Part shown: one piece after another, positions 15,204-62,482 of the stretch | Layout: each line of letters opens with the position of its first letter | Numbering within the stretch: position 1 is the stretch's first letter | From: Elusimicrobiota bacterium | GTDB lineage: Bacteria; Elusimicrobiota; UBA8919 | NCBI GenBank assembly: GCA_016218625.1 | Contig: JACRDL010000045.1 | Location: forward strand, 1 to 63,799 | Direction of reading: 5' to 3' | DNA length: 63,799 nucleotides | The notes under the pieces: generated by a model | What the model saw: only the letters and a program-made list of their open reading frames with translations | Databases searched by the model: none | Told to the model about the DNA's origin: nothing | Position numbers and translations under genes: made by a program

Positions 15204-15210
15204 AAGATGC

Positions 15211-15238: not shown

Positions 15239-15244
15239 AAAATT

Positions 15245-16844: not shown

Positions 16845-16941
16845 TACCACGAAGACACAAGATAAGCCACAGAATGTCACAGAATTTCACTGAATCTTTT
16901 TCTGTGTGATTCTGTGGCGCCTTTTTCGTGCTTTCGTGGTT
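16845..16941. repeat. CACAGAA-word long hairpin (inverted-orientation copy of the family)
   Basis: Arms ACCACGAAGACACAAGATAAGCCACAGAATGTCACAGAA and TTCTGTGTGATTCTGTGGCGCCTTTTTCGTGCTTTCGTGGT. Positions 16861-16890 are the exact reverse complement of 48490-48519. Confidence 0.85.
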
Positions 16942-28114: not shown

Positions 28115-28178
28115 AGCCACAGAATTTCACAGAAAGGCACAGAAATAAATCTGTGTAAATCTGTGTTTATCTGTGGCT
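28115..28178. repeat. CACAGAA-word hairpin between rnfD and rnfG
   Basis: AGCCACAGAATTTCACAGAAAGGCACAGAAAT pairs with ATCTGTGTAAATCTGTGTTTATCTGTGGCT. Confidence 0.8.
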
Positions 28179-31420: not shown

Positions 31421-31510
31421 GTATCGGAAACTGAAAGGCGCCACAGAACCACACAGAAAAAGAACACAGAAATAACTTCTGTGAACTTCTGTGAAATTCT
31501 GTGGCTTATA
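31421..31510. repeat. CACAGAA-word hairpin, near-identical paralog of 48421-48520
   Basis: GTATCGGAA..GCGCCACAGAACCACACAGAAA...TTCTGTGAAATTCTGTGGCTTAT. A 22-nt block is identical to the other copy. Confidence 0.85.
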
Positions 31511-34888: not shown

Positions 34889-34954
34889 AACCACGAGATT
34901 TACACAAGATTTTCACAAGAAAAAAATACTAAAAATCTGTGTTAATCTGTGGTT
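34889..34954. repeat. degenerate CACA(A)GA-word hairpin
   Basis: AACCACGAGATTTACACAAGATTTTCACAAGA pairs with ATCTGTGTTAATCTGTGGTT. Confidence 0.6.
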
Positions 34955-34971
34955 AATTATCGGAGGGTAAA

Positions 34972-39839: not shown

Positions 39840-40661
39840 ATGAAATTAAAAGCAAACGCAAAGATAAATCTGTTTTTAGATGTGCTTGGGAAACGAAAAG
39901 ACGGGTATCACAATATAAAAACGATTTTTCAGGAAATTTCGCTTTTCGATGATATTTTTATTAGAGAAACAAAAAACAGAATCAAAATTTTTTGTGATCA
40001 TCCAAAAGTTCCGACCGATAAAAGAAATCTTGTTTATAAAGCGGTGGATTTAATAAAAAAACGGTTCAAAATTAAAAAAGACATTGAAATAAAAATCAAA
40101 AAAAGAATCCCTGTCGGAGCAGGTTTGGGAGGCGGTTCGTCGGATGCTGCGGCTGTGTTAGGAGGACTCAATAAACTTTGGAATTTGAAACTTGATAAAA
40201 ATCAACTTGCCAAAATAGGAAAAAAACTCGGCGCCGATGTCCCGTTTTTTATTTATGGCGGCAGATGTCTTGGCGAAGGAATAGGCGATAAACTTATGCC
40301 GCTTAAAATCAGAAAAACCCAGTGGTATGTGATAGTTAAGCCGCCATTTGAAATTTCTACAAAAAACATATATTTAAGATTGACAAAAACAAGAAAAACT
40401 GGTAAAATAAAAAAATATATTAACAGATTAGAAGATGTTGTAATTCCTTTGTATCCTGAAATAAAAAAGATTAAAGAGAAATTAGTTGATTATGGTGCAG
40501 AATTTTCATTAATGTCCGGCAGCGGGAGTTGTGTTTTCGGTTTTGTAAAAAATAAAAGTGTCGGCGAAAAAATAAAAAACAAAATGAAAAAAGCCGGCTA
40601 TGCTGTTTGGTTGGTACATTCGGTAGAAGGCAGTAAGTGGGAAGTGGGAAGTGGGAAGTAA
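39840..40661 (+). CDS. ispE: 4-diphosphocytidyl-2-C-methyl-D-erythritol kinase
   Basis: KANAKINLFLDVLGKRKDGYH and the GHMP motif GAGLGGGSSDAAAVL. The C-terminal 9 aa run into a GGGAAGT repeat. Confidence 0.85.
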   Translation: MKLKANAKINLFLDVLGKRKDGYHNIKTIFQEISLFDDIFIRETKNRIKIFCDHPKVPTDKRNLVYKAVDLIKKRFKIKKDIEIKIKKRIPVGAGLGGGSSDAAAVLGGLNKLWNLKLDKNQLAKIGKKLGADVPFFIYGGRCLGEGIGDKLMPLKIRKTQWYVIVKPPFEISTKNIYLRLTKTRKTGKIKKYINRLEDVVIPLYPEIKKIKEKLVDYGAEFSLMSGSGSCVFGFVKNKSVGEKIKNKMKKAGYAVWLVHSVEGSKWEVGSGK

Positions 40662-40708
40662 GAAGTGGTTTTGGTTTAACTACTCTCTACTTACTACTAC
40701 CTACTCCC
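40632..40708. repeat. GGGAAGT/AGTAAG-word hairpin between ispE and spoVG
   Basis: AGTAAGTGGGAAGTGGGAAGTGGGAAGTAAGAAGTGG pairs with AACTACTCTCTACTTACTACTACCTACTCCC. Confidence 0.75.
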
Positions 40709-40727
40709 TGATTTTATGGGGGGCATC

Positions 40728-41039
40728 ATGGAGATTACAGAGGTTCGGGTTTTTTTGAAGGAAGAGGAGCGGTTAAGGGCATATGTGACGGTGACATTTG
40801 ACAATGCATTTGTCGTCAGGAATATGAAAATTGTCAAAGTCAATGACAAACTGATTGTTTCTATGCCGTCAAGAAAAATGAAGGACGGTTCGCACAAAGA
40901 CATCGCACATCCGATAAATGCGGAAATGAGACAAAAAATAGAAAAAGCGGTTATGGATGCATATGAGAAAGAACTTAAAAATCCGCATCCCGTCAAACCG
41001 AGAGAGGTAAAAAGCGAATATCCCGCGAAGGAAGAATAA
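40728..41039 (+). CDS. spoVG: septation/regulatory protein SpoVG
   Basis: MEITEVRVFLKEEERLRAYVTVTFDNAFVVRNMKIV...VSMPSRK. ATG 40728 is preferred. Confidence 0.85.
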   Translation: MEITEVRVFLKEEERLRAYVTVTFDNAFVVRNMKIVKVNDKLIVSMPSRKMKDGSHKDIAHPINAEMRQKIEKAVMDAYEKELKNPHPVKPREVKSEYPAKEE

Positions 41040-41041
41040 AA

Positions 41042-43021
41042 ATGAAAAAGGAAATGATGATACGGTTATACGGTGATAAGATGATACGAATCAGCATATC
41101 AGCATATCAGCATATCATCGCAGTTTTTTCACTTACTTGCTTACTCGCTTACTCGCTTACTCGCTGTCTCTATGCTGCACCGTCGGGAAACATTCAACTT
41201 TCAATCGCTTCCCCTGACCCCGCCACTGCCGGTGAAAAAGTAACATTTCAGGTAATTGCATTGAATACGGGTAGTGAAAAATGGCTTTCCGATGAATATT
41301 ATATGGAAGCCGAGATTTATGATGCGCAAAAAAATTACATCAAAAAAACAGGGAAACTGAAAGTTAAAAATGATGTCAACACGGGTGAAACGGCGCTTGC
41401 CTATATTCCGTTTACCGTGCCGAGTTCTTTTTCCGGCGAGTATTTTTACAAAATTACTTTAACACTTAAAGAGCAAAGAATTATCGTCTCCGAGTATCTT
41501 CCTTTTACCATAGTTGAACTTGCCCGCCCCCTTCAACCGGAAAAAAAAGTTACCGTCGGCGGTAATGCCATTCTTTCATGGAAACAATCGCAAAAAAAAT
41601 ATGAGGTAGACAGTTCTTCATCCGACTACAACGGTTCTCTCAATTTGAATTTGGTTGGCAATGTCTATCAAACGCCGGTTTCGCTGAATGTTTATGCGCT
41701 CTATACGAAATCAGATCAATTTGACCTTGACAATTTTCTTTTTAATTATTACGGGAAAAAAATTCAGGTCGCTTTCGGCGACATACAGCCGTCATATAAT
41801 TCGCTTACATTATATGGTGCGGGAATCCGCGGTTTGAATATCACAGGAACAACAGGAAAATTTTCCGCATCCATCGTCGGTGCCCAGTCGGCGGAAAAAG
41901 AGGAAGGGACGGACACTGCCAACGGCATCTACGAAAGGTATCTATACGGCGGAAAAATAAATCAGGGCTTCACCGAGATGAACACCGTTTTAGGCGGCTC
42001 ATATATTGAAAGCAAAGATAATGAAAATTCTATTGAAAGACCCGGTACAACCCTTCCCGTTAAAAATACCGTTATCGGCGGTGATGTATATTTTGAACCC
42101 ATTGATTTTTTAGGAGTGAAAGGCGATTACGGGCAATCGGAGTACTGGGAGGATATTTCGTCAGGTTCAGTTAAGGACTCCGGCATCAGAGCGACGATTT
42201 CTTCCGTCAATGTTAAAAACTTTTCATTCACGGGAATATACTCAAAAATAGAACCGGATTTCAACTCGCTTGGTGCCCCCGCTTCCACAAAAGACAAGGA
42301 ATCATATGAACTCTCAACCGGGTATTCTCTGGAGCGTTCCTGTTCGCTTTCCGTCTATTTCAACAATTATCATGATAATTTGAACAAGGATCCGAGCAAG
42401 ACAACTACAACTCAAAATCTCGGAAGTGTTACATTGGCAACCGGCATTCCGAAATATCCGGTTTTGACTCTGGGTTATTCCATGAATATAGCGAAAGGCG
42501 ATCCGATAAACGCTCTTAACAATGAAACAAAAACGCCGTCGGTTGGAATTTCTCACACGATAAAAATGACGACACTTTCTTTAAATGCCCAGCAGTCAAA
42601 ATTCAAAGATAAAACCAGTGTCTCATCCGATTTAAAAACTGACACGGGAAATCTCGGATTTTCAACACGCATCGGAGAGAATATTTCCGTTTCCGGCGGT
42701 ACCACGCTCTCTAAAACATTAAATATTGCTTCATCAACGGAAACCGCAACTGGCTCATATTCACTCAACATAAATTATCTCAACATCATAAAAGATAAAC
42801 TCTCCGCCGCAATGTGGGGTTCTTATACGACTTCTCTTGATAAACCGATGCAATCAACGGATAATATAAACACGACCGGCACCGTTGAGTTGACATACAA
42901 CCTTCGTCAAAATCTTTCCGCCACACTCGGCTATACGCTCGCCGACTATAAAGACGATATTTCCGTAGTAAACAGTTATAAAGAAAATTCCGGAAATATC
43001 CGGCTATCAATGAGTTTTTAA
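41042..43021 (+). CDS. putative outer-membrane beta-barrel protein with an N-terminal Ig/CARDB-like domain
   Basis: Signal peptide ending CLYA. An Ig-like ~110 aa domain (GEKVTFQVIALNTGSEKW), then ~500 aa of alternating beta pattern. Terminal ...IRLSMSF. Confidence 0.55.
   Translation: MKKEMMIRLYGDKMIRISISAYQHIIAVFSLTCLLAYSLTRCLYAAPSGNIQLSIASPDPATAGEKVTFQVIALNTGSEKWLSDEYYMEAEIYDAQKNYIKKTGKLKVKNDVNTGETALAYIPFTVPSSFSGEYFYKITLTLKEQRIIVSEYLPFTIVELARPLQPEKKVTVGGNAILSWKQSQKKYEVDSSSSDYNGSLNLNLVGNVYQTPVSLNVYALYTKSDQFDLDNFLFNYYGKKIQVAFGDIQPSYNSLTLYGAGIRGLNITGTTGKFSASIVGAQSAEKEEGTDTANGIYERYLYGGKINQGFTEMNTVLGGSYIESKDNENSIERPGTTLPVKNTVIGGDVYFEPIDFLGVKGDYGQSEYWEDISSGSVKDSGIRATISSVNVKNFSFTGIYSKIEPDFNSLGAPASTKDKESYELSTGYSLERSCSLSVYFNNYHDNLNKDPSKTTTTQNLGSVTLATGIPKYPVLTLGYSMNIAKGDPINALNNETKTPSVGISHTIKMTTLSLNAQQSKFKDKTSVSSDLKTDTGNLGFSTRIGENISVSGGTTLSKTLNIASSTETATGSYSLNINYLNIIKDKLSAAMWGSYTTSLDKPMQSTDNINTTGTVELTYNLRQNLSATLGYTLADYKDDISVVNSYKENSGNIRLSMSF
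41055..41165. repeat. composite word repeats (GATACGG, CAGCATAT x3, CTTACTCG x3) encoding the leader peptide
   Basis: Read directly. Encodes MIRLYGDKMIRISISAYQHIIAVFSLTCLLAYSLTR. Confidence 0.85.
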
Positions 43022-43082
43022 TAGACTATAGATTACACGGATAAAAGACAAGATTACACAGATTAAAATCCTGGGAGGGAAA

Positions 43083-44522
43083 ATGAAACTAAAATCGGGA
43101 AGTGGGAAGTGGTTTGTAGCGGGCGAATTGCTATTCGCCATATTTTGTGGGATAGCAATCCCACCGCTACTCCCTACTCCCTGTCTTTACGCTCAAAAAG
43201 AATCAAAGACATCAATTGAAACCAAAATTGCCATTGAATCAAGCATGGAGAACCGTCTGAAAAAGGTCCTGACCGAAATAACCGGCACCGAAAAAATCGT
43301 CATCATAGTAAATGTCCAGTTGATGAGCGAAAAAAAGGAAAAAGCGCCTGCTAAAAAAGAGGATGAAATGTTTCTTCCCGGAGTTCCCATAAAAGAAACA
43401 CTTGCCGAAAAAAAGGTTGAGTCGGTTATGATGTCCGCACTTGGCGACGACACCAGGACGCTCATCAAAAAACTTTCGGTCACTATTATACTTGATAAAT
43501 CCGTATCTTCCGCAGTGGTTGAAATAGTAAAAAAAGTTTCATCGGGCCTTCTGGGGATTGAACCGGAGAGAGGCGATGAACTTAAAATTGAGCAGATGAG
43601 TTTTCATAAAGATATTTTTTCGTGGAGTTCGCTTATTTATCCGCCGAATATCTACTGGATTTTTGCTGTCTTGGCAGCACTCGGCTTTACCTTAACGATT
43701 TCACTGTTTTTGTTCGGACCTTTCCAGAAATTTGCCAAAGACCTTGTTTCTGCGGCTGTCAGTTCGGCGTCATCATTTAAGGAAAAGACATCGGAAGCAT
43801 CAGGCGGCTTTGCGACTGGTGCGGCAATTCCGGAAATAGCCGCCCCGGCGGAAACAAGAAAGGAACTTACGGCTTCCGGCAAAGAGCCGCTTTTTTCGTT
43901 TGTCAATTCCGAGAACATAAAGGAACTTGTTTATCTTCTCAAAAACGAATCAGCAAAAAATATAGCAATCGTTATGAACTATCTGACATCGGAATTATCA
44001 GCCCGAATTTTTACCGAGCTCCCGAAGGATATAAAGAAAGATGTCGTCGGTTTTTTGTCCAAGGTGGAGGAACTTACTCCGTCGGAGGTTGAAAAATTAG
44101 AAAACCATCTTAAAATAAAAATTGATTTTCTTTCAGGCGGAGAGGAAAAAATACGGGATATTGTAAATAATGCCGACGAGAAACTTCAAGGCGAAATTAT
44201 TTCCGAACTAAAAACCAAAGACCCGAACCTTGCCCAAAAAATTGAAAAATCAATCGTTCGTATTGACATTCTTTCTTCTATGGATGTGTCTGGTTTGCAA
44301 CTTTTAATAAAACAGGCGGGGACTGCCGTATTCGGACAGATACTGAAAGTTTTGCCCGCCGAGCAGCAGGAAAAAGTGTTTTCCGTTTTGCCGGCCGGAG
44401 CCGCTACCCGCTTGAAACAGGAAATGGAATTGGGAAAATCAATAACACCCCAGCGGCTTGAAATTGAGAAAAAAAGAATGCTGGATATTATTCGTAGGAT
44501 GAAAGAGAGAGGACTGATATGA
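43083..44522 (+). CDS. FliF-like ring domain / TM / FliG-like (middle plus C-terminal domains) fusion protein
   Basis: GGGAGGG Shine-Dalgarno. Periplasmic MENRLKKVLTEITGTEKIVIIVNVQL and KKLSVTIILD...PERGDELKIEQMSF are YscJ/FliF-like. TM helix YWIFAVLAALGFTLTISLFLF. The cytoplasmic half aligns by eye with FliG_M/FliG_C. Confidence 0.65.
   Translation: MKLKSGSGKWFVAGELLFAIFCGIAIPPLLPTPCLYAQKESKTSIETKIAIESSMENRLKKVLTEITGTEKIVIIVNVQLMSEKKEKAPAKKEDEMFLPGVPIKETLAEKKVESVMMSALGDDTRTLIKKLSVTIILDKSVSSAVVEIVKKVSSGLLGIEPERGDELKIEQMSFHKDIFSWSSLIYPPNIYWIFAVLAALGFTLTISLFLFGPFQKFAKDLVSAAVSSASSFKEKTSEASGGFATGAAIPEIAAPAETRKELTASGKEPLFSFVNSENIKELVYLLKNESAKNIAIVMNYLTSELSARIFTELPKDIKKDVVGFLSKVEELTPSEVEKLENHLKIKIDFLSGGEEKIRDIVNNADEKLQGEIISELKTKDPNLAQKIEKSIVRIDILSSMDVSGLQLLIKQAGTAVFGQILKVLPAEQQEKVFSVLPAGAATRLKQEMELGKSITPQRLEIEKKRMLDIIRRMKERGLI
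43098..43183. repeat. GGGAAGT-word arms enclosing a 55-nt three-way-junction palindrome (inside the signal-peptide coding region)
   Basis: GTAGCGG (43116-22) pairs with CCGCTAC (43164-70). They enclose hairpins GCGAAT-tgct-ATTCGC and GTGGGAT-agca-ATCCCAC. Confidence 0.8.
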
Positions 44523-44733
44523 CCACAGAACAGACACGGAAGCCCCCGCTTAAAGCGGGGGACACGGAACAAACACGGAACTGGTGCGGAATGTCATTGC
44601 GAGGAGTGAATGAAATGAACGACGAAGCAATCTCATGGGATTGCCACGGGACTTTGTCCCTCGCAATGACAACTTCGTTGTCAGTTTAGTGTCAGTTCTG
44701 TGTACAAGTTCCGCTTCAGTTCCGTGTAAGGAG
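44523..44733. repeat. composite element: CACGGAAC-word arms, a GC hairpin, and a nested GTCATTGCGAGG palindrome
   Basis: GCCCCCGCT-taa-AGCGGGGG (44541-61). GTCATTGCGAGG...CCTCGCAATGAC (44593-44670). Right arm GTTCCGCTTCAGTTCCGTG. Confidence 0.8.
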
Positions 44734-44743
44734 CGTAGCGACT

Positions 44744-45517
44744 ATGGATTTAATGACTTTATGCGGGTTTCTTATCGGCGGCGGTGCCGTCTATTATGTA
44801 ATGGTTCAGGGAAATATTGTAAATCTTCTTTTAGACCTTAACGCCGCAATACTTGTATTCGGCGGCACGCTCGGCGCTGCACTGATTACATATCCATGGA
44901 AAATAGTAAAAATTATTCCGAAAGCGATAACGATGATGATTTTTCCGCCCAAAAGGATAAGCAACGATACGGCTGTAAAAACTATTGTTTCGCTTGCCGA
45001 AAAATCAAAGCGGGAAGGAATTGAAAAGTTGCAGGAAGAAATTCCAAAATTAGAAACACCGTTTTTAAGGGATGCTCTGCAGATGGTTGTTGACGGTTTG
45101 GAGACGGAAATTATCAAGGAAAAACTTGAAAAGGAACTTTCGCTTGTCCGCCAGCGTCACCATCAGGTTTCATCAATTTTTCGTTCAATGGGAGCGTATT
45201 CGCCTATTTTCGGACTGTTGGGAACGCTGATTGGTGTCGTTCAGGTTTTAAGAAATCTTTCAGATGCCCAATCAATGGGCGCTGCAATGGCTATCGCGGT
45301 GACCACGACATTTTACGGAATTTTCGGCGCCAATTTTTTATTTTTACCGATAGCGGGAAAACTTACCATTTATTCCGAGGATGAAATTACGCTGAAAGAA
45401 CTTCTTGCGCGGGGCGTTTTATCAATTCAAAAAGGAGATGTCCCTGTTTTAATTCAGACGAAACTTGAAGCATTTCTGGCGTATAAGTTGCGTGGAAAAG
45501 AAGGAGAGAAAAAGTAA
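44744..45517 (+). CDS. motA: flagellar-type stator protein MotA/PomA
   Basis: 257 aa, 4 TM helices, a cytoplasmic charged loop, and conserved prolines in AYSPIFGLLGT and LFLPIAGKL. AAGGAG Shine-Dalgarno. Confidence 0.85.
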   Translation: MDLMTLCGFLIGGGAVYYVMVQGNIVNLLLDLNAAILVFGGTLGAALITYPWKIVKIIPKAITMMIFPPKRISNDTAVKTIVSLAEKSKREGIEKLQEEIPKLETPFLRDALQMVVDGLETEIIKEKLEKELSLVRQRHHQVSSIFRSMGAYSPIFGLLGTLIGVVQVLRNLSDAQSMGAAMAIAVTTTFYGIFGANFLFLPIAGKLTIYSEDEITLKELLARGVLSIQKGDVPVLIQTKLEAFLAYKLRGKEGEKK

Positions 45518-45584
45518 GCAGTAAGCAGTGAGTTAGGGAAGTCAAAATCCTCACTCACTTACTCACTTACTCACTGTTTTTTTT
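45513..45584 (+). terminator. terminator-like word-hairpin plus T8 between motA and motB
   Basis: AGTAAGCAGTAAGCAGTGAGTTAGGG pairs imperfectly with CCTCACTCACTTACTCACTTACTCACT. A T8 run (45577-84) follows, abutting ATG 45585. Confidence 0.5.
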
Positions 45585-46241
45585 ATGGCTCAACGAAGAG
45601 AAACAGATTCTCAGGAAGGTAATATCTGGACAACCGTATATTCGGATATGGTGACCAATCTCATGCTTTTTTTTCTGATGCTATACGGCTTGACTCGAAT
45701 GTCAGCCGATATGCGCAGCGATATCACAAAAGGGCTTGAAAAAAAATTCCGCGGCGCAACCTCTGCGGAAGTCCGTGCGGAAAAGGTGGTAAAAAAATTC
45801 ACCGAAGAAGAAACCGCCTCAAAGGTCAGCGATCTTGCTCAAAGCGAAAAATCGGAATATACATCCGTTGAAATAAACGAGAAACAAATCAAAATTATTC
45901 TTAATTCCCCTGTGCTTTTTTCACCCGGAAGCGCCGAGTTGCCCGATGCAACAAAAATCGCGCTGAATGATGTGGCAAGAATTATTAAACCCGTTCCCAA
46001 TACGATAATAATAGAAGGGCACACCGATGATATGCCGATTTCCAGAGGGCAATACTCAACAAACTGGGAACTTTCCGTGGCGCGGGCTTACAGCGTTATT
46101 GAATATTTCGTCAAAATTAAAAATATTCCTGCCGGCAGGTTTGTCGCGGCGGGTTACGGCGAGTTTAAAGCGATTGCGGGAAACGAAACCGAAGAGGGCA
46201 GGGCAAGAAACAGAAGGATTGAAATTGTGATGGTACGGTGA
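45585..46241 (+). CDS. motB: stator protein MotB (OmpA-like peptidoglycan-binding C-terminus)
   Basis: NIWTTVYSDMVTNLMLFF carries the channel Asp (D21, 45645-47). IIEGHTDDMPI...RARNRRIEIVM is the OmpA domain. Confidence 0.8.
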   Translation: MAQRRETDSQEGNIWTTVYSDMVTNLMLFFLMLYGLTRMSADMRSDITKGLEKKFRGATSAEVRAEKVVKKFTEEETASKVSDLAQSEKSEYTSVEINEKQIKIILNSPVLFSPGSAELPDATKIALNDVARIIKPVPNTIIIEGHTDDMPISRGQYSTNWELSVARAYSVIEYFVKIKNIPAGRFVAAGYGEFKAIAGNETEEGRARNRRIEIVMVR

Positions 46242-46242
46242 G

Positions 46243-46291
46243 GAACACGGAACTGACGCGGAATGAAGGAACACGGAACTGACACGGAATT
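46243..46291. repeat. CACGGAAC-word left arm flanking the GxxExxY gene
   Basis: GGAACACGGAACTGACGCGGAATGAAGGAACACGGAACTGACACGGAA. Complementary to 46667-46712. Confidence 0.8.
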
Positions 46292-46666
46292 ATGAGCAAA
46301 CTTTTATATGAGAGCGAGTCATATATTATTCGCGGTGTGGCATATGATATCTACAAGAAATTCAGGAATAGACATAAGGAAAAAGTTTATCAGAGTGCTT
46401 TTTATTATGGTCTTGTAAATAAGGGACTTAAAACGGAAAAAGAAAAAAGAATTGAGGTGAATTTTGATGGCAGAAAAGTCGGGACATATATACCGGATTT
46501 AATTGTGGAAGATAAACTTATGATAGAACTCAAAGTTAAACCGGAAATAACATCCGAAGATATAAAACAGTTCTGGTATTATCTTAAAAATTCAGGATAT
46601 AAAGTAGGTTTTCTAATAAATTTTGGCAGGTCTGATGGAATTAGAATAATCCGCAGAGTTCATTAA
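46292..46666 (+). CDS. GxxExxY-family (PD-(D/E)XK-like) protein
   Basis: 124 aa. EKVYQSAFYYGLVNKGL, YIPDLIVEDKLMIELK and GFLINFG match the GxxExxY family pattern. Confidence 0.75.
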   Translation: MSKLLYESESYIIRGVAYDIYKKFRNRHKEKVYQSAFYYGLVNKGLKTEKEKRIEVNFDGRKVGTYIPDLIVEDKLMIELKVKPEITSEDIKQFWYYLKNSGYKVGFLINFGRSDGIRIIRRVH

Positions 46667-46712
46667 AGTTCCGCTTCTGTTCCGTGTATAAGTTCCGTGT
46701 CAGTTCAGTGGT
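46667..46712. repeat. GTTCCGTG-word right arm flanking the GxxExxY gene
   Basis: AGTTCCGCTTCTGTTCCGTGTATAAGTTCCGTGTCAGTTCAGTGG. TTCCGTGTCAGTTC is the exact complement of GAACTGACACGGAA upstream. Confidence 0.8.
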
Positions 46713-46716
46713 ATTT

Positions 46717-47475
46717 ATGGATAAAGATTATTTTCAGGAAGACAGTGATATAATTGCGGCGATTGAAGGCGGCGAGGATTCGCAGAAAACTTCAAAACCC
46801 GAAGGTGAAAAATCCGAAAGTGAACATCGCGATCATTTTATTTCCACTGATTCATGGGTAATTCCATATGCCAATCTTATGACGATTTTGATGATTTTCT
46901 TTATGATACTTTATGCTTATGCCATTTTGTACGGCGGCGGCGCCCGATATGAAAAAGCAATGGCATCTATTCAGAAAGGCGTTGCTACGGGTAGCGAACA
47001 GTTAAAAAAAATAGAAACGCTTGAAAAAGAGGCGAATGCCGGAACGCAGATGGAGGATTTCATCAAGGAAAAAAATCTTTCCGAATATGCAAAGGTAGAA
47101 ACAAACGCCCAGAGAATAAAAATTTCTCTGTCAAATCCGATATTGTTTGACAGCGGTTCCGCGGAACTTAAAAGTGCCGCAACTCCTGCATTAAAAGAAA
47201 TAGCCCAGTTAATTCTCACTATGGAAAATCCGATTATTGTTGAAGGACACACCGACGATGTTCCTATTTCTTCGGCGAAATACCGTTCCAATTTTGAACT
47301 TTCTGCCGCGCGGGCGTTCAGCGTTATAAATTATTTCATCAACATTGAAAAAATATCCCCGGAAAGATTTTCCACATTCGGTTACGGCGAATACAGGCCG
47401 GTCGTCTCAAATGATACCGAAGAAAACCGTGCAAAAAACAGAAGAATTGAGATTAACATTATAAGAAAAACATGA
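46717..47475 (+). CDS. MotB paralog with Asn in place of the channel Asp
   Basis: SWVIPYANLMTILMIFF (N53, AAT 46873-75). IVEGHTDDVPI...RAKNRRIEINI is the OmpA domain. ATG 46717 is preferred. Confidence 0.75.
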   Translation: MDKDYFQEDSDIIAAIEGGEDSQKTSKPEGEKSESEHRDHFISTDSWVIPYANLMTILMIFFMILYAYAILYGGGARYEKAMASIQKGVATGSEQLKKIETLEKEANAGTQMEDFIKEKNLSEYAKVETNAQRIKISLSNPILFDSGSAELKSAATPALKEIAQLILTMENPIIVEGHTDDVPISSAKYRSNFELSAARAFSVINYFINIEKISPERFSTFGYGEYRPVVSNDTEENRAKNRRIEINIIRKT

Positions 47476-48392
47476 AAAAAGAATCGTTGATACGGTTATA
47501 TGCTTATATGCTGATACGATTTTTACATATCATCGTATTACCGTATTACCGTATTACTGTAGTTGTTTTACTACTTATCACCGTATCATCTTATCACCGT
47601 ATCACCTGCCTTTATGCACAGGAAATTTCCACTCTCTATCAGGATGCGATGACGGCGTTTTACAAAAAGGACTACAAAAAAGCGATTTCACTCTGGGAAG
47701 AGGTATTAAAAGTTGACCCAAGGCAAAAAAATCCGCAGAAACTTATAGAGATGGCTCGCTCAAAAATGGCGGAGAATATAAAGCCGCTCACCGACGAATT
47801 CAACAAATTTTTGGAAAGGGGCGAATACCTTCAATCAGTGGAAAAACTGGACCAACTTCTGGAACTTGACCCTACAAATCCAACTTGGCAGAGTTACAGA
47901 GAAAAACTTCAGAAGTTCACGGTGAATGTTGCACCGTCAATTACGGAGAAGGGAAAAATCCCTCAACTTTTAAGAAAAAGCGTCAACAGTTATTTAGGCA
48001 GAGAAAAAGACGACCGTATTGCCGTTCTTGCCTCCCGTTACGCGTGGCAACTTGAAAAATCAAATAAACTTTCTGAAAAGGTTTTTCTTTTTATGGACAA
48101 GGAGTTCTCGGTGGTCGCCCGGATTGAGGTTATTGACAGGGTGAAGACCGTTGTTGAGCAGAAGCAGGATACGATTTTGGATGCGATTTACGACGGTAAA
48201 TACGAATACGCCAAAATGGAATGCGAACTGGTAATATCAATTGAGCCGGAGAATGCTCTCGCTTGGAAACGGCTCGGCTCGGTGTATTATGCTCTCGGAA
48301 AAAGAACTGATGCAAAGGCGTGCTGGCAGGAAGCGATGAGAATTGCACCCGATGACTCCGAAACAAAAAAATTTTTACAGAAAATCAAGTGA
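47472..48392 (+). CDS. secreted TPR-repeat protein
   Basis: Leader ends CLYAQ. TPR units (AFYKKDYKKAISLWEEVLKVDP; AWKRLGSVYYALGKRTDAKACWQEAMRIAP). ATGA overlap with upstream. Confidence 0.65.
   Translation: MKKESLIRLYAYMLIRFLHIIVLPYYRITVVVLLLITVSSYHRITCLYAQEISTLYQDAMTAFYKKDYKKAISLWEEVLKVDPRQKNPQKLIEMARSKMAENIKPLTDEFNKFLERGEYLQSVEKLDQLLELDPTNPTWQSYREKLQKFTVNVAPSITEKGKIPQLLRKSVNSYLGREKDDRIAVLASRYAWQLEKSNKLSEKVFLFMDKEFSVVARIEVIDRVKTVVEQKQDTILDAIYDGKYEYAKMECELVISIEPENALAWKRLGSVYYALGKRTDAKACWQEAMRIAPDDSETKKFLQKIK
47487..47608. repeat. GATACGG/GTATTACC-word palindromic repeats encoding the leader peptide
   Basis: Shares TGATACGGTTATA (direct) and ACGGTGATAAGATGATACG (inverted, 47582-47600) with the leader of ORF 41042. 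Confidence 0.85.
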
Positions 48393-48420: not shown

Positions 48421-48520
48421 GTATCGGAATTTGAAAAGCGCCACAGAACCACACAGAAACAACACAGAAAGAAACAAGAAAAAACTTCTGTGAAATTCTG
48501 TGACATTCTGTGGCTTATCT
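48421..48520. repeat. CACAGAA-word hairpin, paralog of 31421-31510
   Basis: GTATCGGAATTTGAAAAGCGCCACAGAACCACACAGAAA...TTCTGTGAAATTCTGTGACATTCTGTGGCTTATC. Confidence 0.85.
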
Positions 48521-48521
48521 T

Positions 48522-49016
48522 ATGGATTACATTCAGATTTTTGATGAATTGAATAAGGAAGAGATTGAATATCTGGTTGTCGGCGGACTGGCTTTGAATT
48601 TGCTGGGCATTCCGAGAGCGACATATGATATTGACCTGCTTTTAGAGTTATCATCGCACAACCTTATAAAGTTTTTGTCTTTGGTAAAAAAGTGGGGATT
48701 TAAACCTAAGGTTCCGGTAAGCATTATGGATTTTGCTGAGAAAGAAAAAAGAGACGGCTGGATAAAAAAGAAAAATATGAAAGCGTTCTGTCTGGTAAAT
48801 CCCGATTGGGCATTATCGGAAATTGACATTATTATTGATACACCGGTAACATACAATTTAGCGGCAAAAGATGCTAAACATATCAAAATCGGCACTGCTC
48901 CCGCTGTTTCCGTTCCGGTTATTTCAGTGAATAATCTTATAAAAATGAAACAAAAAACCGCCAGGCAGCAGGACAAAGCGGATATAAGATATTTAAGGAA
49001 ACTGCAAGATGTCTAA
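48522..49016 (+). CDS. nucleotidyltransferase-fold protein (possible toxin-antitoxin component)
   Basis: YLVVGGLALNLLGIPRATYDIDLLL and the C-terminal KQKTARQQDKADIRYL resemble uncharacterised nucleotidyltransferase families. Confidence 0.45.
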   Translation: MDYIQIFDELNKEEIEYLVVGGLALNLLGIPRATYDIDLLLELSSHNLIKFLSLVKKWGFKPKVPVSIMDFAEKEKRDGWIKKKNMKAFCLVNPDWALSEIDIIIDTPVTYNLAAKDAKHIKIGTAPAVSVPVISVNNLIKMKQKTARQQDKADIRYLRKLQDV

Positions 49017-49191
49017 AAAATTTAAAGAGTGCGGATTTAATTACTATCTTTCCAAAGAAAGGATAGAAGAATATCGGAAAAAACCGCCGGTGAAACGGCT
49101 TCTCTGGTTGTATCAGTTGAACCTTTTCCGTGCGAAATATCCGCAGAGCATTAGAAAAATCCAGGACAGGTTTCGAAGCGGAGAGTTATAA
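49009..49191 (+). CDS. small hypothetical protein overlapping the upstream nucleotidyltransferase gene
   Basis: 60-aa ORF with an 8-nt overlap. No family recognised. Confidence 0.3.
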   Translation: MSKKFKECGFNYYLSKERIEEYRKKPPVKRLLWLYQLNLFRAKYPQSIRKIQDRFRSGEL

Positions 49192-49216
49192 AAATCGCTA
49201 TGTGCAAAAAATCACA

Positions 49217-49245
49217 TTGACAAGATTGCAAAAATAGTTTATACT
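49217..49245 (+). promoter_or_regulatory. candidate sigma70 promoter TTGACA-N17-TATACT
   Basis: TTGACA 49217-22, a 17-nt spacer, then TATACT 49240-45. Same hexamers as the candidate at 20653. Confidence 0.45.
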
Positions 49246-49248
49246 TTT

Positions 49249-49335
49249 GGTAGTCGCAGGGTTTCCTGCTAATGTAGCTGCAGAGCGAAGCTCTGCTTGT
49301 GTTGTAGTCGCAGACCCTCGGTCTGCTGATGTAAA
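49249..49335. repeat. array of three (T)GTAG-hairpin modules
   Basis: GCAGG-gttt-CCTGC, GCAGAGC-gaa-GCTCTGC and GCAGACC-ctc-GGTCTGC. Each is preceded by (T)GTAG(T/C). Confidence 0.8.
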
Positions 49336-49358
49336 GCAAATATGAGCGATATAAGTAT

Positions 49359-49389
49359 TATGAAAATCAGAACCGTCCCGATAATTTCC
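49359..49389. repeat. 31-nt direct repeat, copy 1 (upstream of the MNT/HEPN pair)
   Basis: TATGAAAATCAGAACCGTCCCGATAATTTCC. Matches 50170-50200 at 30 of 31 positions. Confidence 0.9.
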
Positions 49390-49448
49390 TTGTCATGCAT
49401 TTTCATGGATGACGGGAAACTGTTTTTAAGAATAAAGGAATAGTTCGT

Positions 49449-49772
49449 ATGATTGGAAAAGAAAAAATAGACGAAATAGTTAAAAAAATTGTTGAAAATG
49501 TAAAACCGGAGAAAATTGTTTTATTCGGTTCATATGCTTATGGTAATCCGGCAAAGCACAGCGATTTGGATTTGTGTGTGGTTGTAAATGAGGATATTAT
49601 TAAAAATCCTGATATTGGCTGGGAAATAAGAAAATTATTTTGGGGTTGGTTAATTCCAATGGATATAATTACATACTCTCAAAAAGAGATTAATGAATGG
49701 AAAAATGTAAAAATGGCATTTCCTACTACAATTATGAGAAAAGGCAAAGTGCTATATGAAAAACAACAATGA
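49449..49772 (+). CDS. MNT-type nucleotidyltransferase (antitoxin of a HEPN/MNT module)
   Basis: IVLFGSYAYGNPAKHSDLDLCVV. Confidence 0.8.
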   Translation: MIGKEKIDEIVKKIVENVKPEKIVLFGSYAYGNPAKHSDLDLCVVVNEDIIKNPDIGWEIRKLFWGWLIPMDIITYSQKEINEWKNVKMAFPTTIMRKGKVLYEKQQ

Positions 49773-50151
49773 TTTAGTCAATGAATGGTTTAAAAAAGCA
49801 GATGAAGATATTCTGACTATTGAAAATAACTTAAAAGCGGAAAAGATACCAACATCAACCGTTTGTTTTCATTCTCAGCAATCTGCTGAAAAATATTTAA
49901 AGGGTTATTTGTCATATAAAGAAATAGAATTTGAATTTGTGCATGATATGGAATATTTAATTAATCTGGCAACAGAGAATGAAAAGAAATTTGAAGAATT
50001 AATTGAAGTAGTTAAAAAATTAGATAAGTATTCTGTAAAAATAAGATATTCATATTTTTATACACCGACATTGGAAGAAGCAAAAGAATCTTATGAAATG
50101 GCAGTAAAAATCAGAGATTTTGTGTTAAGTTTATTAAAAGGGAAAATGTAG
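49756..50151 (+). CDS. HEPN-domain protein (toxin of a HEPN/MNT module)
   Basis: WFKKADEDIL...CFHSQQSAEKYLKGYL...H. Overlaps the MNT gene by 17 nt. Confidence 0.8.
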   Translation: MKNNNDLVNEWFKKADEDILTIENNLKAEKIPTSTVCFHSQQSAEKYLKGYLSYKEIEFEFVHDMEYLINLATENEKKFEELIEVVKKLDKYSVKIRYSYFYTPTLEEAKESYEMAVKIRDFVLSLLKGKM

Positions 50152-50158
50152 AATTTTT

Positions 50159-53100
50159 ATGAAAAATAGTATGAAAACCAGAACCGTCCCGATAATTTCC
50201 CTTTGTAGTCGCAGAGTTTACTCTGCTTTCTTGTCATTGCGAGCGATAGCGAAGGTTGTCATTGCGAGGGCGAAGCCCGTGGCAATCTCTGTGTTTGTTC
50301 TGCGTCAGTTCCGCGTTCTGTTCCGCGTCTGTTCAGCGGTCTTAATAATTTCCTCCGTCCCCATTAGTTTATATGCTTGGGTAAAATATTCGGGAAATCC
50401 TATCCTGATTCACGAAAATGTTGGGGCACGGTTTCCAACAACGCTGAAAGAAAATAATACATATTATCTATTCTATGGCGAGTTAAATGTTGGCGACAAT
50501 GCAATGTGGGTAAACCTTGCAACTGCAACTGCTGTTACAGGTCCATATGGCAAATATGGAACCGTTCATAATATAAATTTACAAACATGGATGTCCCATG
50601 CTGTTTATCCCGGGTGTGTGCTTAAAGTTGCAACAACTTACTTTATGTACTATCATGGTGATGATGCGAACCTTGACCCCAACCGATATATCGGGGTTTC
50701 TACAAGTACGAATCTGTACAACTGGTCACCACATTATAATAATCCTGTCTTAAGTACAGGCCTCGCGGGGTCGCCAGATTCTCAAATGGCTACAAATCCA
50801 AGTGTAATCTATAAAGACAGCCAGTTTATTATGTGGTATATTGGTTATAATGGAAGTGTTAATTCGGTATGTCGTTCAACCTCAACAGATGGATACAACT
50901 GGGAAAAATATTCAGGAAATCCTGTTCTTTCCCCAAACGGTGAGGAAGTAAATATAGAAGATGTTAGTGTTATATTTGATACCGCAACCGCAAAATACAG
51001 AATGCTTTACGACAAAGCAGATAATAATATAAGATATGCAGAATCTACTGATGGTATAAACTGGGTGAAAAAATCCAACAATCCTGTTTTGGTGGGCGGA
51101 CCATCAGCATGGGATGCTCAAAGATCAGTCATGGCAAATTTTCTTAAAGATGCTACTACTGGTTATGTAATGTGGTATTGGGGATACCCTAACGAAGATA
51201 TTGGTTTTGCTAATAATCCCGAACCTGATGCTATTACAAATCTTTCAGCACTTACAGGTCAAAATTTTAATGAGATAAAATTAAGTTGGACAAGTCCTGG
51301 CGCTAATTATGATTTGGACTCACTTCCATCAGGCAGTCAATACAAAATTCAGTACTCATCATATTCGATTAATTGGTCAACTGCTTCAGCCAATCTTACC
51401 ATTTCAACTTCTGCTGTTTCGCCAGGAAGTTTACAATCATATACCCTAACCGGTTTAATAGGAGGGGCAACTTATTACATTAGAATTTGGACAGGCGATG
51501 AAACACCAAGTTGGTCTGACCTATCTAATGATGCAACTGCACAAGCAAAACCTGACAACACACCACCGGCGGGGATTAGTAATTTGACCGCGTTAAAGGG
51601 AGCGAATGCGGGACAAATTGTTTTACAATGGACATCGCCAGGTGATGACGGAACGGTCGGCAATTTAACGGGGCAGTTTGAAATTGAATACACCACAGGC
51701 GGAATAATAACGAACGCCAATTATTATTCTCCGCCGCCGCAAATGACATCAATAAGTATTTCAACGAGTAATCTTGCACCGCTGACCGCATGCACCACAA
51801 CGCTTTACAACTTGTCGCCAGGGGCGACATACTACTTTGCAATCAAGTCAAAAGACGATGTCAACAACATATCGGTTTGGAACTCCTCTGCGGATGTTTC
51901 AGGCGTCAACACCGCCGCCTTCCTTTATATACCGTTCATTGCCAAATCAATGTTTACCGGGAATTGGAATGTTCCGGGCACATGGGAAGGGAATGCGGTT
52001 CCGTGGGCAAATCAGGGAGTAGAAATTAAAAGCGGTAATACAGTTACTTTTAGCACGACTAATGCGTCGGTTACTTGCTCAACACTTACAATTTTGGGAA
52101 CTTTGCAGTTTGACGGAGCGGTTGCCAATCGGTCAATGGTTGTAGCGGGTAACATTGACATCCAGAATGGAGGTCAATTTTTGATGCCGCCGAATACGGG
52201 TTATATTTCAACACTGAAAATCAGGTGCGATACTGCCGGTCAGTATGGAATAATCGTCAATAACGGCGGAAAGTTTGATGTTCAGGGCAACACCACAACA
52301 ACGCCATCAACGAGAAATTGCCTAATCGCATCAGACAACCCGTCATACAAAACATACATCCGAAACCTTTCACTAACAGAAGCAAATTTTAATATGTATT
52401 ATGTAGAAGTAAGCAGCGTTGGAGTGGATGCTACATCAAAAGGGGGAATAACTTTTGATGGTGCCGGAACAAGAGGAAAAATCAATTATTGCAGTATTCA
52501 TAATGGGTATATTGGCATTTATCTTAACTCCAGTTCCAGCAACACAATAAGCAATAACAATTGTTACTCAAATACTCAATATGGCATTTACTTTTACAAC
52601 AGTTCCAACAATACAATAAGCAATAATAGTATCTATGCAAATTCTTATTATGGCATTTATTTTTACAACAGTTCCAACAACACTATAAGCAATAACAGTT
52701 GTTACTCAAACTCTCAAAATGGCATTTACATTGATTCCAGTTCCAACAATACTTTGAACAATAACAGTTGTTATTCAAATACTCTATACGGCATTTACTT
52801 TGTTGGCAGTTCTAATAACATAATGAGCAATAACAATTGTTACTCAAATGCTCAAAGTGGCATTGTTTCAGGTAATAATTCCATAAATAATACAGCAGTG
52901 AAATGTGAATTGAGCAATAACACAAATAGTGATATTCAGTATATCAATGGTTCTGTTTCCAAACTAACCTTAAAAAATTGTAATTTATATTCTTCAACGA
53001 AAGTCAATACGACAGGAATAAATACTGCGGGGTCATATCTTGTTTCGTATAATCAGGACGGGACACAGGGGACGACGAAGATTTGGGGCGATTACCATAT

Positions 53101-56100
53101 TGGAACAGGGCAAGCCCTGTCACTCCAGAAATTCAATTACGCAGAACCCTTATATGTTTCAACCGCAACCCTGCCGAATTCTACATTATCAGGCACCGGT
53201 TCAATTACATATCCGACGACTATTAGCAGTCAAACGCTGACAGAATTCTGGGAAGTGAAATTTAATGGGTCGTCTTTTGATGTCCGAAGAGGAACTTGGT
53301 CTGTTCTTACAAATGATGGCACGGCATCTGCTGCAGGAGTGCCTTATACAAGCACAACAAGAGGAGTGAGTTTTGCAGCAAACGGCACTTTCATATTAAA
53401 TGATGCGTTTTATTTTGTAACGATTTCTTCTTCCGCTGATATGAATGTTCAGAAAAAACTGGAATTCAGCGATTCGCCGATCGGGACAAAACTTACCGTT
53501 GATAACGGCGGGACAATCCAGATGCTCGGCACTTCTGCTAATCCCACAATTTCCACAAATGCAGTCGGAAGCACTTATTACGGATTTCAATCGTCAGGCA
53601 CGCTTAATTTGAGCAATTATGATATTTTCAATTTGAAATCATCCGGTCTGGAGATTTATCCGAATGCGAATGTCGTTGATTTAAGCACCGGCACTTTTGA
53701 TAACAGTCAGGGCGGCGCCGGTTCAAGTTGTATCAATGTGAACGGAATAACATCAAACAAGACATTTTACGGTTGTAAATTTAATGCTCCCGCGGACTAT
53801 AATGTCAAAGCCGATGGTGCGGGTATCAACTGGACGTTCCTCAACTGGTCGGGAGTAAGGGCGGGCGAAAATTATGATTATGAAACAAACGGAGCGCAAA
53901 TAAAATGGGATGCTACTCCGCCGACGATTACGGATTTGCAAGGCGGGGATGATGTTGTAAGGAACGCGGGGGGGACGGCTTATAATGTTGATTTTAATGA
54001 TAATGACAAGTTGGATACGATTCAATACAGGGTGACAACGCTGCCGTCTATTTCCGGCGGCGGAACGGAAATCATTCCGTGGACAAATATAGCGGTGAAC
54101 ATAGGAGCAAGCTCCTATACTACAGATTGGCAGGTTAATTTTGCGGCACTTCAATCGCTTCCAACCACCAACTATGTTTCCGTTCGCGTCTGGGATGTCG
54201 CAGGAAATACTACAACTGTCAACGATGTTTTTTATGTGATGAAAGACACCGTTCCGCCGACCTCCGGGGTTTCAAGTCCTGTTGATGCTATAAATGTGCA
54301 AACGCTTACAACAATTTCCGGCACCTGTGCTGATAATTACAGTGTAGGTAACGTTAATATACAGATAAAACGATTTTCAGATGGGCAGTATTGGGATGGT
54401 GTTAGCAAAGTTTGGACTACTGTTATGTGGAATGCTGCTTCTTCAACTTATCCATCATGGTGGACATATACGCCTCTTACCGATGCATATCTTACACCCG
54501 GCACATCCTACCAGATTCGTACTTTTGCAGTTGATACCTTAAATAATAATGAAACACCCGGTGCCGGCATCACATTCACATATAAAACGAAAAAAACGAT
54601 TTCATCTGGCAACTGGACAGATGCTGCGACATGGTCAGGCGGACAGCAGCCGCTTGATGGCGATGCGGTCTTTCTAAAACCGTCGTGGGCAGTAACCTTA
54701 AATGCCAACACATCCAACCTTTATTCTTTGACGATAGAAGACGGTGCGAAACTTGGCAATACAAGTTATCAAATCAACATTTCCTCCTTTGACGGCGGCG
54801 GGATTTATAATTATGGGACGCTTGATTATAATACATCCGGTGCTCTTAATATGAAAGGAAACAAAGTTGTCGTGTCAACGGCCACCAGCCAGCAGATATG
54901 CAATGATTTTTATGTTCTTACCGGTGCGACAATTACTCTTCAGTCGGACATCACTGTCGGCGGTATCAGAATTGAAAATGGCGGGAAACTGGATTCAGCC
55001 AGCAAACAAATCACACTAAAAACAGGCAGTTGGAACATGCTAAGCGGAGGAACATTTTTAGCGGGGTCATCAACGGTGACATTCGCCGGAGGAACGGGGT
55101 CCCCTCAGGACATCAATTTTCTCAGCAACTTACCTCAAAACTTCGCCAATTTAAGAATCAATAATGGCTTTTCCGTTGTCCCATATGGGGCACTTGACAT
55201 CAATGGAGACTTTACGATTCAGAGCGGAACATTTGTCGCAGGTAATTTTGAACACTTTATTTCAAGCAATTTCACTCAGACCGGCGGCGGGTTTGAAGCG
55301 AACACATCCACAATAACATTTGACGGTTCAGGATTACGAACAATTTCTGTATTAGCAGGCACTTCTTTCTACTGTTTAAAAAATACAGGAATCACCGGTA
55401 GTACTTTGAGACCGCTTTCTAATTTAGATATAAACGGTGATTTTACGCACGCAGGGACGGGTTCGTTTGATTTTGGAAACTATACTTATAATTTTGCAGG
55501 TAAAGTTTCTGTATTATCCGGCGCGAGTTATGGCGGAAGTTCTAAATGGATATATGACGGCATAACACAACAAATTGGTCACACCAGTGGAGATATCATT
55601 ATTGTAAAAAATCCCGCCGTATTAAAATTTACTGCAACACCATTGCTCAGATCTATTAATATAGACCCGGGCTGTTCAGTTGATGCAACAGGACTAAATC
55701 TGCAACTTCGAGAAAGTTTCACCAGTTCGGGAACTTTTATAAATAGCGGCTCAACAGTAACATTTGAGACATATTCTGGTAATGGGTCAATCTGGACAGT
55801 GGCGTCATCAACATTTAATAACGTAACGATACAGAAACCATCAATAACTGATATCGTGACCGCACTTACTTCTTTAAATATCGGCGGGTGGCTGAAAGTT
55901 AATTCCGGCACACTTAATATGGGTTCTACAATTCATACGATTCAAGGCAATACAACCATCAGCGGTATTCAGTCACGGCTGGACATCGGCTCGTCCACGA
56001 CTACGCTTGTAGGTGCGGTTAATGTGCTGAACGGAGGCACGCTTTTACTACCTAATGCCACACCCAACCCTGTTCTTAAACTCGGAGTGCCGGGAGCAAA

Positions 56101-62478: not shown

Positions 62479-62482
62479 AAAA

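Follow-up and report, generated by a model that had tools for sequence, protein, structure and literature searches.

A conserved cluster of flagellar-type rotor and stator genes beside an outer-membrane barrel and a giant surface protein in Elusimicrobiota

A FliF/FliG fusion and its stator genes

The window analysed here is the whole of the 63.8-kb contig JACRDL010000045.1 (assembly GCA_016218625.1; G+C ~38%), whose proteins are closest to those of metagenome-assembled genomes (MAGs) of Elusimicrobiota. A cluster of seven co-directional open reading frames (ORFs; 41042-48392), bounded by spoVG (40716-41039) on one side and a row of nucleotidyltransferase/HEPN genes on the other, includes homologues of the rotor and the stator of the flagellar motor. 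A preliminary description of this DNA, made from the sequence alone, had located the cluster correctly and counted six genes, overlooking a 124-amino-acid ORF at 46292-46666. The six, all on the forward strand, encode an outer-membrane barrel protein of 659 amino acids (41042-43021), a FliF/FliG fusion rotor protein of 479 (43083-44522), a flagellar-type stator A subunit of 257 (MotA/PomA-like; 44744-45517), two MotB paralogues of 218 (MotB1, 45585-46241) and 263 (MotB2, 46684-47475), and a secreted tetratricopeptide repeat (TPR) protein of 306 (47472-48392). Downstream, on the same strand, is the gene of a giant surface protein of 3497 amino acids (50159-60652). We scanned ~45 window proteins against Pfam and found among them no further flagellar or chemotaxis gene, in agreement with the preliminary description.

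The 479-amino-acid protein had been taken for a FliF-like protein with a FliG-like cytoplasmic tail, a reading that the profile and structure comparisons bore out. It matches the Pfam families FliG_M (5.9e-12) and FliG_C (8.6e-18) and, weakly, YscJ_FliF_C (5.8e-4, amino acids 128-174). A profile of 33 fusion homologues, compared with the PDB, matched the middle-plus-C region of T. maritima FliG (1lkv) with E 4.7e-47, and its periplasmic part gave weak matches to FliF and SpoIIIAG. The AlphaFold2 (AF2) model (pLDDT 77) begins with a hydrophobic helix, continues with an alpha-beta-(insert)-beta-alpha-beta domain (amino acids 42-172) and a transmembrane helix, and ends in a disordered linker and an all-helical FliG region. 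Foldseek searches with this model placed FliG structures at the top (E ~1e-8) and next ~20 structures of the third ring-building motif (RBM3), or S-ring, of the FliF MS-ring (E 1e-3 to 2e-2, probability 1.0, target TM-score up to 0.59). Distant fusions pass Pfam's own cut-off for YscJ_FliF_C, with 43 bits for the fusion of locus L034, 36 bits for P0135 and 34 bits for P0181.

The fusion starts with a signal peptide that extends to about amino acid 36 (...CLYA/Q, the slash marking predicted cleavage). An RBM3-like periplasmic domain (amino acids ~42-172), which holds a 40-amino-acid insert with an invariant LPGVP motif, is followed by one transmembrane helix (~189-211), a linker and the FliG middle (M) and C domains (~270-479). 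The leaders of the fusion family all end in a signal-peptidase-like xAQ/K site, CLYAQ being confined to close relatives; the mature protein is therefore probably a type-I membrane protein of the order RBM3(out)-transmembrane helix-FliG(in). P0135, P0161 and P0167 are among the distant variants of the system, and some fusions carry an extra cytoplasmic TPR region at the C-terminus.

Canonical FliF has three RBMs and two transmembrane helices, and the fusion has one RBM3-like domain and a single transmembrane helix. RBM1 and RBM2 were not found by Pfam, in the AF2 model or by Foldseek, so the protein has no housing for an export gate. A separate FliG_N domain is likewise lacking: the sole FliG_N match (E 0.0098) overlaps the M/C region, and in the AF2 model the linker connects the transmembrane helix straight to FliG-M. 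The protein joins FliF and FliG covalently, dispensing with FliG-N and with the FliF tail. Motif statistics over 26 family members showed that the FliM-binding EHPQR motif is not kept (P/S/T at the His site, E/K at the Gln site, F/A/G at the Arg160 site). The two Gly of the Gly-Gly hinge are kept in 26/26 and 23/26 members, and the torque helix LPxGxxxRLKQEMEL keeps its charges, with R in 24/26, K/R in 22/26, E in 25/26 and E/D in 22/26. Against the fliG model TIGR00207 the fusion scores 77 bits (cut-off 226.7).

The A subunit, described beforehand as of the MotA/PomA type, matches MotA_ExbB (3.8e-26) and aligns end to end with a solved flagellar MotA, residues 1-246 with residues 1-246 (E 7.5e-50); the corresponding value for PomA is 2e-38. 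Its best NCBIfam matches are flagellar MotA, PomA and MotP, whereas ExbB/TolQ reach only E ~2e-3, ~50 orders of magnitude worse; it remains below the NCBIfam equivalog cut-off (192 bits vs 237). All 24/24 family sequences have the channel prolines equivalent to E. coli P173 and P222, and all 24/24 have the basic pair of the R90 site. By these comparisons MotA classifies with the flagellar type of stator, as defined in PMC12505986, and not with the Tol, Exb, Agl, Gld or Zor types. That paper mentions the AglRS class and does not mention Elusimicrobiota.

MotB1 has the three features of a flagellar B subunit, namely a plug, a transmembrane helix with the conserved Asp (YSDMVT; D32 in E. coli) and an OmpA-like peptidoglycan-binding domain. 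The preliminary description had recognized a pair of MotB proteins, and both do match MotB_plug and OmpA in Pfam; it had not noticed that alignment of MotB2 to B. subtilis MotB puts Asn in place of the channel Asp (PYANLMT). The true start of MotB2 may be the ATG at MDKDY. We tallied the Asp pattern over 22 loci that have both paralogues: the residue is present in both proteins in 7, in MotB1 only in 12, in MotB2 only in 3 and in neither in 0. In a neighbour-joining tree MotB1 and MotB2 form reciprocally monophyletic clades of congruent topologies, MotB1 of the window falling in the orthologue clade of that name and MotB2 in a separate ancient paralogue clade. Tree and pattern therefore point to one ancient duplication as the source of the two paralogues, followed by at least six independent losses of the channel Asp, no locus having lost it from both proteins. 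Together they speak for a heteromeric MotA5:MotB1:MotB2 stator that would need one Asp only. We also considered MotB2 as an analogue of MotY and rejected this, since it has the plug and the transmembrane helix of a complete MotB paralogue.

The barrel, the giant and the conservation of the block

For the first protein of the cluster, the AF2 model (pLDDT 71.6) agrees with the barrel and Ig-like N-domain that had been proposed. Behind the signal peptide it shows a periplasmic Ig-like beta-sandwich (amino acids ~51-158) and a beta-barrel of ~26 strands (~170-658), and the protein ends in ...RLSMSF with an aromatic last residue. It belongs to no family in Pfam, NCBIfam or PADLOC. Foldseek retrieved generic large barrels, with MtrB best (E 1.7e-9, query TM-score 0.50), then LptD, the FimD usher and TonB-dependent transporters; SprA ranks only 43rd. 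The family comprises 17 database hits, all from Elusimicrobiota and all ~640 amino acids long.

The last gene of the cluster encodes a TPR protein, as had been read, on the evidence of Pfam TPR families. Its start overlaps the motB2 stop by 4 nucleotides (nt), and it directly follows motB2 in all loci with flank. A sequence search of the PDB with the TPR protein returned generic TPR matches only. In locus L017 a 637-amino-acid protein (10592-12505) consists of the cluster TPR protein fused to a FecR domain, a Rosetta-stone fusion that links the core to an accessory FecR gene found next to the giant in some lineages (see below).

The giant protein carries fn3, beta-helix and G8 domains (Pfam) behind a Sec leader. 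Giant bodies vary among genomes, with Kelch or FG-GAP elsewhere; only the Sec leader and the C-terminal ~285 amino acids are common to them. This C-terminal module (amino acids ~3212-3497, encoded at 59792-60652 on the forward strand) consists of Ig-like domains and then a sorting domain resembling type A of the type IX secretion system (T9SS), with the sequence VYAYPNP...VASGIYIY...KKIAVIK. It aligns end to end with the giants of loci L003, L005, L006, L015, L021, L024, L027 and L033 (E 1e-35 to 1e-56). The T9SS-type C-terminal domain (CTD) reported in the preliminary description was recovered in our scans. The last ~95 amino acids of the module pass the T9SS type-A model TIGR04183 (39 bits vs cut-off 23, run on the last 400 amino acids), show the motifs YPNP, GxY and KKxAVIK (KKxAVIR across giants) and match the CTD of PorU (6za2); Pfam Por_Secre_tail, run on the full-length protein, stays below cut-off (21.8 vs 27). 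Among all ORFs of all loci a profile HMM of the CTD matches these giants alone. A database search with the C-terminal 290 amino acids, aimed at further cargoes that share them, was uninformative, with 6 matches that are mostly fragments. The T9SS core genes gldKLMN, sprA, porV and porU were not seen in any neighbourhood of the examined loci. Within the giant gene, 52513-52864 is a 69-nt tandem repeat of 5.1 copies, ~77% identical, that encodes 23-amino-acid repeats.

Conservation was followed over 34 loci, collected from contig look-ups and a scan of GTDB species representatives and mapped by phmmer of all ORFs. All 34 are from Elusimicrobiota or unclassified MAGs, and no cultured species is among them. 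The closest fusions, 88-89% identical to that of the window, are in UBA4817 and related MAGs, which an entry in the supplement of a preprint on magnetotactic Elusimicrobiota (10.1101/2022.07.08.499144) places in GTDB class UBA8919. Wherever the flank is long enough, the order is fusion-MotA-MotB1-MotB2-TPR, with fusion identities as low as 28%, and the five-gene core occurs in at least three classes (UBA8919, Endomicrobia and Elusimicrobia). Synteny in relatives, which the preliminary description had proposed as a check, is thus kept. Barrel homologues (627-674 amino acids) adjoin the motor genes in 16 loci and giants in 14; some are placed upstream, some downstream and some on the other strand. 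Throughout the phylum the five core genes have stayed together, with the barrel and the CTD-bearing giant inherited beside them. Because this adjacency persists through rearrangement, it carries the signature, at the level of gene order, of a functional linkage of barrel and giant to the motor, and the link between motor and giant, speculative when first proposed, is strengthened by the presence of barrel homologues and C-module giants beside the motor genes in most loci. The 64-kb window holds no gene for an export apparatus, C-ring, rod, hook or filament and no che gene, and none was seen over a distance of ~10 kb from the fusion gene in 27 loci.

With the periplasmic domain as sole query, an exhaustive HMMER search gave 173 clusters at 50% identity. 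In almost all of them the proteins are 430-530 amino acids long with the periplasmic domain N-terminal, and FliG M/C domains were found in 10/10 divergent cluster members checked. Named members of the fusion family are Elusimicrobiota. One member labelled 'Thermoprotei archaeon' (P0206, RLE71917.1) is on a 4.9-kb contig, and its label is most likely a binning error. Locus L034 (5554-12858) is a distant variant with genes, in this order, for a TPR protein, MotA, a 535-amino-acid fusion with a full YscJ_FliF_C match, a 472-amino-acid protein and MotB. In L003 MotA (11438-12221) and the barrel (14600-16536) are each frameshifted, and the same holds for L004, which is from one population with it; the frameshifts may be long-read assembly errors or real inactivation.

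Other genes and repeats of the window

Two further secreted proteins are encoded behind the giant on the forward strand, a multi-Ig protein of 609 amino acids (CARDB and CarboxypepD_reg; 60649-62478) and a FecR-domain protein of 352 (Pfam FecR 1.4e-20; 62456-63514). Both are accessory and occur in a subset of lineages. The order giant, CARDB/CarboxypepD_reg, FecR, downstream of the cluster in the window (50159-63514), recurs in L003, L006 and L015 immediately upstream of the fusion gene. A PDB sequence search with the FecR protein found nothing specific. In the deep-branching locus L005 a stand-alone CheY-like response regulator (7096-7473) is encoded between the barrel and giant genes and could be a regulator of the motor.

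The ORF that had been overlooked lies between motB1 and motB2 in the direction of the cluster and encodes a PD-(D/E)XK_3 ('GxxExxY') protein (Pfam). It is flanked by a 26-nt direct repeat (46241-46290). None of the related loci has the gene, which makes a mobile or selfish insertion probable. The TPR gene is parted from the giant gene by a nucleotidyltransferase (DUF6036-like) gene and genes of MNT/HEPN toxin-antitoxin type (48510-50151), where relatives have HicA or nothing; the PD-(D/E)XK and toxin-antitoxin genes are specific to this window among the related loci. The remaining window proteins outside the cluster are housekeeping (Rnf complex, ApbE, TrkA, LemA, ispE, spoVG) or toxin-antitoxin proteins. 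Conserved genes upstream of the cluster in Elusimicrobiales were examined as extra parts of the system and discarded, being housekeeping genes (dxs, polyprenyl synthase, radical-SAM, LOG-like). Scans of the window for tRNA and Rfam families gave no match, and a promoter and terminator scan was uninformative.

The signal-peptide coding regions or gene starts at 41058-41165, 43097-43182, 47496-47606 and 62496-62585 are built of 7-8-nt tandem repeats in 2-6 copies, for example CTTACTCG x4.2, CGTATTAC x3.5 and AGTTCGG x4.9; further sites are at 10628-10662, 12763-12807, 40635-40668 and 45553-45575. The preliminary description had taken the repeat-encoded leaders ending in CLYA(Q) as the mark of a functional unit. 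This marker has to be abandoned: the ends are those of ordinary-looking signal peptides, and the repeats are also on unrelated genes of the window. Predicted cleavage leaves Gln at +1 (LYA/Q) in most members of the fusion family, in the window at 43188 (fusion) and 47619 (TPR protein), which recalls the 'Q-rule' reportedly described for Bacteroidetes. As the lengths of the repeat units are not divisible by three, gain or loss of copies would alter the reading frame; this could be slipped-strand on/off switching of envelope proteins, as in Neisseria opa, or equally a genome-wide quirk.

Long periodic palindromes recur between operons as intergenic arrays of three CACAGAA at 10-nt spacing and then three inverted TTCTGTG (16868-16911, 28118-28170, 31442-31498, 34892-34957 and 48442-48512). 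The 221-nt gap between the fusion and motA (44523-44743) holds a similar palindrome, CACGGAA...GTCATTGCGAGG / CCTCGCAATGAC...GTTCCGTG. These elements may be like repetitive extragenic palindromes or may be terminators.

A putative non-flagellar rotor-stator machine

What the parts are, how they depart from the canonical ones, how the block is conserved and how it is linked to a barrel and a CTD-bearing giant together describe a system that is real, conserved and essentially undescribed. In the literature that we searched it appears in one passing remark of the preprint on magnetotactic Elusimicrobiota (10.1101/2022.07.08.499144), by which most free-living members of the phylum are without flagellar structural genes yet have motAB and fliG, and a few have full flagellar gene sets. 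The preprint is without the fusion architecture, the paralogous MotBs or the link to barrel and giant. We lean, with some reserve, towards a non-flagellar rotor-stator machine derived from the flagellar torque core and serving the giant adhesin through its export, mounting or movement. The kept hinge, the torque-helix charges and the basic pair and prolines of MotA point to a rotor-stator pair that may still be at work.

We propose that ring formation, rotation, heteromeric stators, scaffolding by the TPR protein and transmission of work to barrel and giant would combine as follows. The fusion would assemble into a ring in the inner membrane, much as the 33-34-mer MS-ring does, and offer its FliG torque helices to MotA5:MotB1:MotB2 stators that are anchored to peptidoglycan and scaffolded by the periplasmic TPR protein. 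Ion flow would turn the ring, and the work would be carried through the periplasm to the barrel in the outer membrane, with the RBM3 ring, the TPR protein and the periplasmic Ig domain of the barrel as candidate links, joined in some lineages by the FecR and multi-Ig proteins. The barrel would hold the C-terminal module of the giant or translocate it. As output, export and surface mounting of the giant adhesin, or its powered movement, would be likeliest, in a logic like that of GldLM with SprB. In its most specific form the proposal names an undescribed class of envelope-spanning rotary machine, in which a FliF(RBM3)-FliG ring and MotA5:MotB1:MotB2 stators, without export gate, rod, hook or filament, drive a CTD-bearing giant through a 26-strand barrel; this we advance tentatively and stop short of expecting.

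Several observations weigh against such a machine. In the fusions Gly takes the place of the canonical Arg of the torque helix (R281 of E. coli), with a conserved Arg one helical turn later, and the MotA column of E98 is usually Gln, with E/D nearby, so that the acidic residues are shifted; the rotor-stator interface is unlike the flagellar one and could be non-functional. That the Asp is never lost from both MotB paralogues is statistically weak, as ~1.6 double losses would be expected if the losses were independent. Loci L001 and L002 have neither barrel nor giant within 10 kb, and in L013 and L014 the available flank holds no giant, so that barrel and giant are not linked to the motor without exception. 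Gene neighbourhood is what suggests the coupling of the motor to barrel and giant, and no periplasmic shaft like the rod or GldM is evident. The genome-wide absence of a flagellum is taken from the statement on free-living Elusimicrobiota in 10.1101/2022.07.08.499144, not from a scan of our own.

Among known systems close to the cluster is the flagellar motor core, with which it shares an RBM3-type domain, FliG M and C domains with a Gly-Gly hinge, the channel prolines of MotA, and the plug, Asp and OmpA-like domain of MotB; its torque helix is charged as well, though the Arg stands one turn away from the canonical site. It differs in lacking RBM1/2, FliG-N and EHPQR, in having FliF and FliG in one polypeptide and two MotB paralogues, in having no export gate, fliM/N, rod, hook, filament or che genes nearby, and in its link to an outer-membrane barrel and a CTD-bearing giant. 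The Chlamydiaceae, a non-flagellated lineage, have a FliF-FliG fusion in which a shortened periplasmic region of FliF is likewise joined to a FliG-like cytoplasmic domain (Bergeron 2016, PMC4768692). That protein, ~330 amino acids long, has an RBM2-like region and a FliG-M-like domain only, lacks MotAB partners and is presumed to act with a type III secretion system (PMC4768692). The fusion described here, in contrast, has RBM3 and both M and C domains of FliG, and scores 23 bits on NF004606, the probable chlamydial model (cut-off 297).

With GldLM/PorLM, T9SS and SprB of Bacteroidota the cluster is alike in logic, with a motor in the inner membrane, here a putative one, that is ion-driven and of the 5:2 type, an outer-membrane barrel and a CTD-bearing giant adhesin; GldL and GldM, however, are not of the flagellar type and act without a FliG ring. 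To our knowledge T9SS is known from the Fibrobacteres-Chlorobi-Bacteroidetes group, outside which the Elusimicrobiota lie. The AglR/AglQ/AglS-Glt machinery of Myxococcus has one A subunit, two B-subunit paralogues, TPR proteins and outer-membrane barrels carrying a surface adhesin. The cluster resembles it in its single A subunit with two different B paralogues, its TPR protein and its barrel with adhesin; the Agl proteins are TolQR-like, without an OmpA-type MotB, FliG or FliF, and are coupled to MreB/AglZ tracks. The periplasmic stator holders MotX/MotY of Vibrio and PflA/PflB of Campylobacter, of TPR/Sel1 and OmpA-like type, recall the TPR gene that follows motB2 here, but no specific homology to them was detected (the TPR protein has generic matches only) and MotB2 is a true MotB paralogue.

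The loci with no barrel or giant nearby would be accounted for if the five core genes were a stand-alone envelope energiser, serving integrity or division in the manner of Tol-Pal, and the barrel and giant were unrelated cargo of another pathway; so would the frequent position of the cluster among housekeeping isoprenoid genes. We consider this unlikely, as the barrel family with its 17 hits is known from the motor context only, the barrel stays adjacent through rearrangements in 16 loci and across deep divergences, and a C-terminal module of their own is preserved in the giants. That the cluster is a normal flagellar rotor and stator set, albeit fused, and a dispersed part of a regulon whose other genes are elsewhere in the genome, seems to us quite improbable. 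The four motor proteins are clear flagellar homologues, source annotations name members of the fusion family FliG, and a few Elusimicrobiota do possess full flagellar sets; yet the fusion lacks RBM1/2, FliG-N and the FliM-binding motif and falls far short of the TIGR00207 cut-off, no flagellar gene is near any of the 27 loci or in the 64-kb window, most free-living members have no structural flagellar genes (10.1101/2022.07.08.499144), and the link to barrel and giant is conserved.

Still less probable is a decaying relic of an ancestral flagellar motor, functionless today. Genes that are intact and syntenic across at least three classes, near-invariant channel prolines, hinge and torque-helix charges, and at least one Asp always retained all speak for function, as opposed to the mostly non-flagellated state of the phylum (10.1101/2022.07.08.499144), the frequent loss of Asp from one MotB paralogue and the frameshifts of MotA and barrel in L003 and L004, which concern one population and may be assembly errors. 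A Zorya-like anti-phage system, with the MotAB homologues as an envelope sensor, is the least credible of these explanations, and we rejected Zorya or another defence system as an identity for the cluster. Both MotB paralogues do match ZorB models in PADLOC at ~78-80 bits, described as weak, and toxin-antitoxin and nucleotidyltransferase/HEPN genes are nearby. The paralogues, however, score far higher on flagellar MotB/MotD/MotS models, MotA has neither a ZorA match nor the long ZorA tail, PADLOC finds no ZorC, ZorD or ZorE, and the toxin-antitoxin genes are window-specific insertions.

If the proposed machine driving a giant adhesin is real, it would be the first flagellar rotor-stator pair at work outside a flagellum, its stator would run with a single proton-carrying Asp, and a T9SS-like sorting domain would be in use independently of T9SS. 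FliG is lacking from every non-flagellar relative that is known for the stator (Tol, Ton, Agl, Gld, Zor), and in the searched literature FliG-type rotors are known in flagella only. A conserved FliF/FliG ring with flagellar-type stators and without axial structure would show that the torque core is a separable module that can be rewired to other outputs, a point of interest for how evolution put the flagellum together or took it apart. A rotor made of a single polypeptide, without FliM or FliN, would be simpler for structural and biophysical work, and the MotB1/MotB2 pair, which in many lineages keeps a single Asp, amounts to a test by nature of whether both proton sites are needed in a 5:2 stator. 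The link to giant adhesins bearing a T9SS-like domain, in a phylum from which no T9SS is known, points to an unrecognized route for the display or movement of very large surface proteins in uncultured bacteria.

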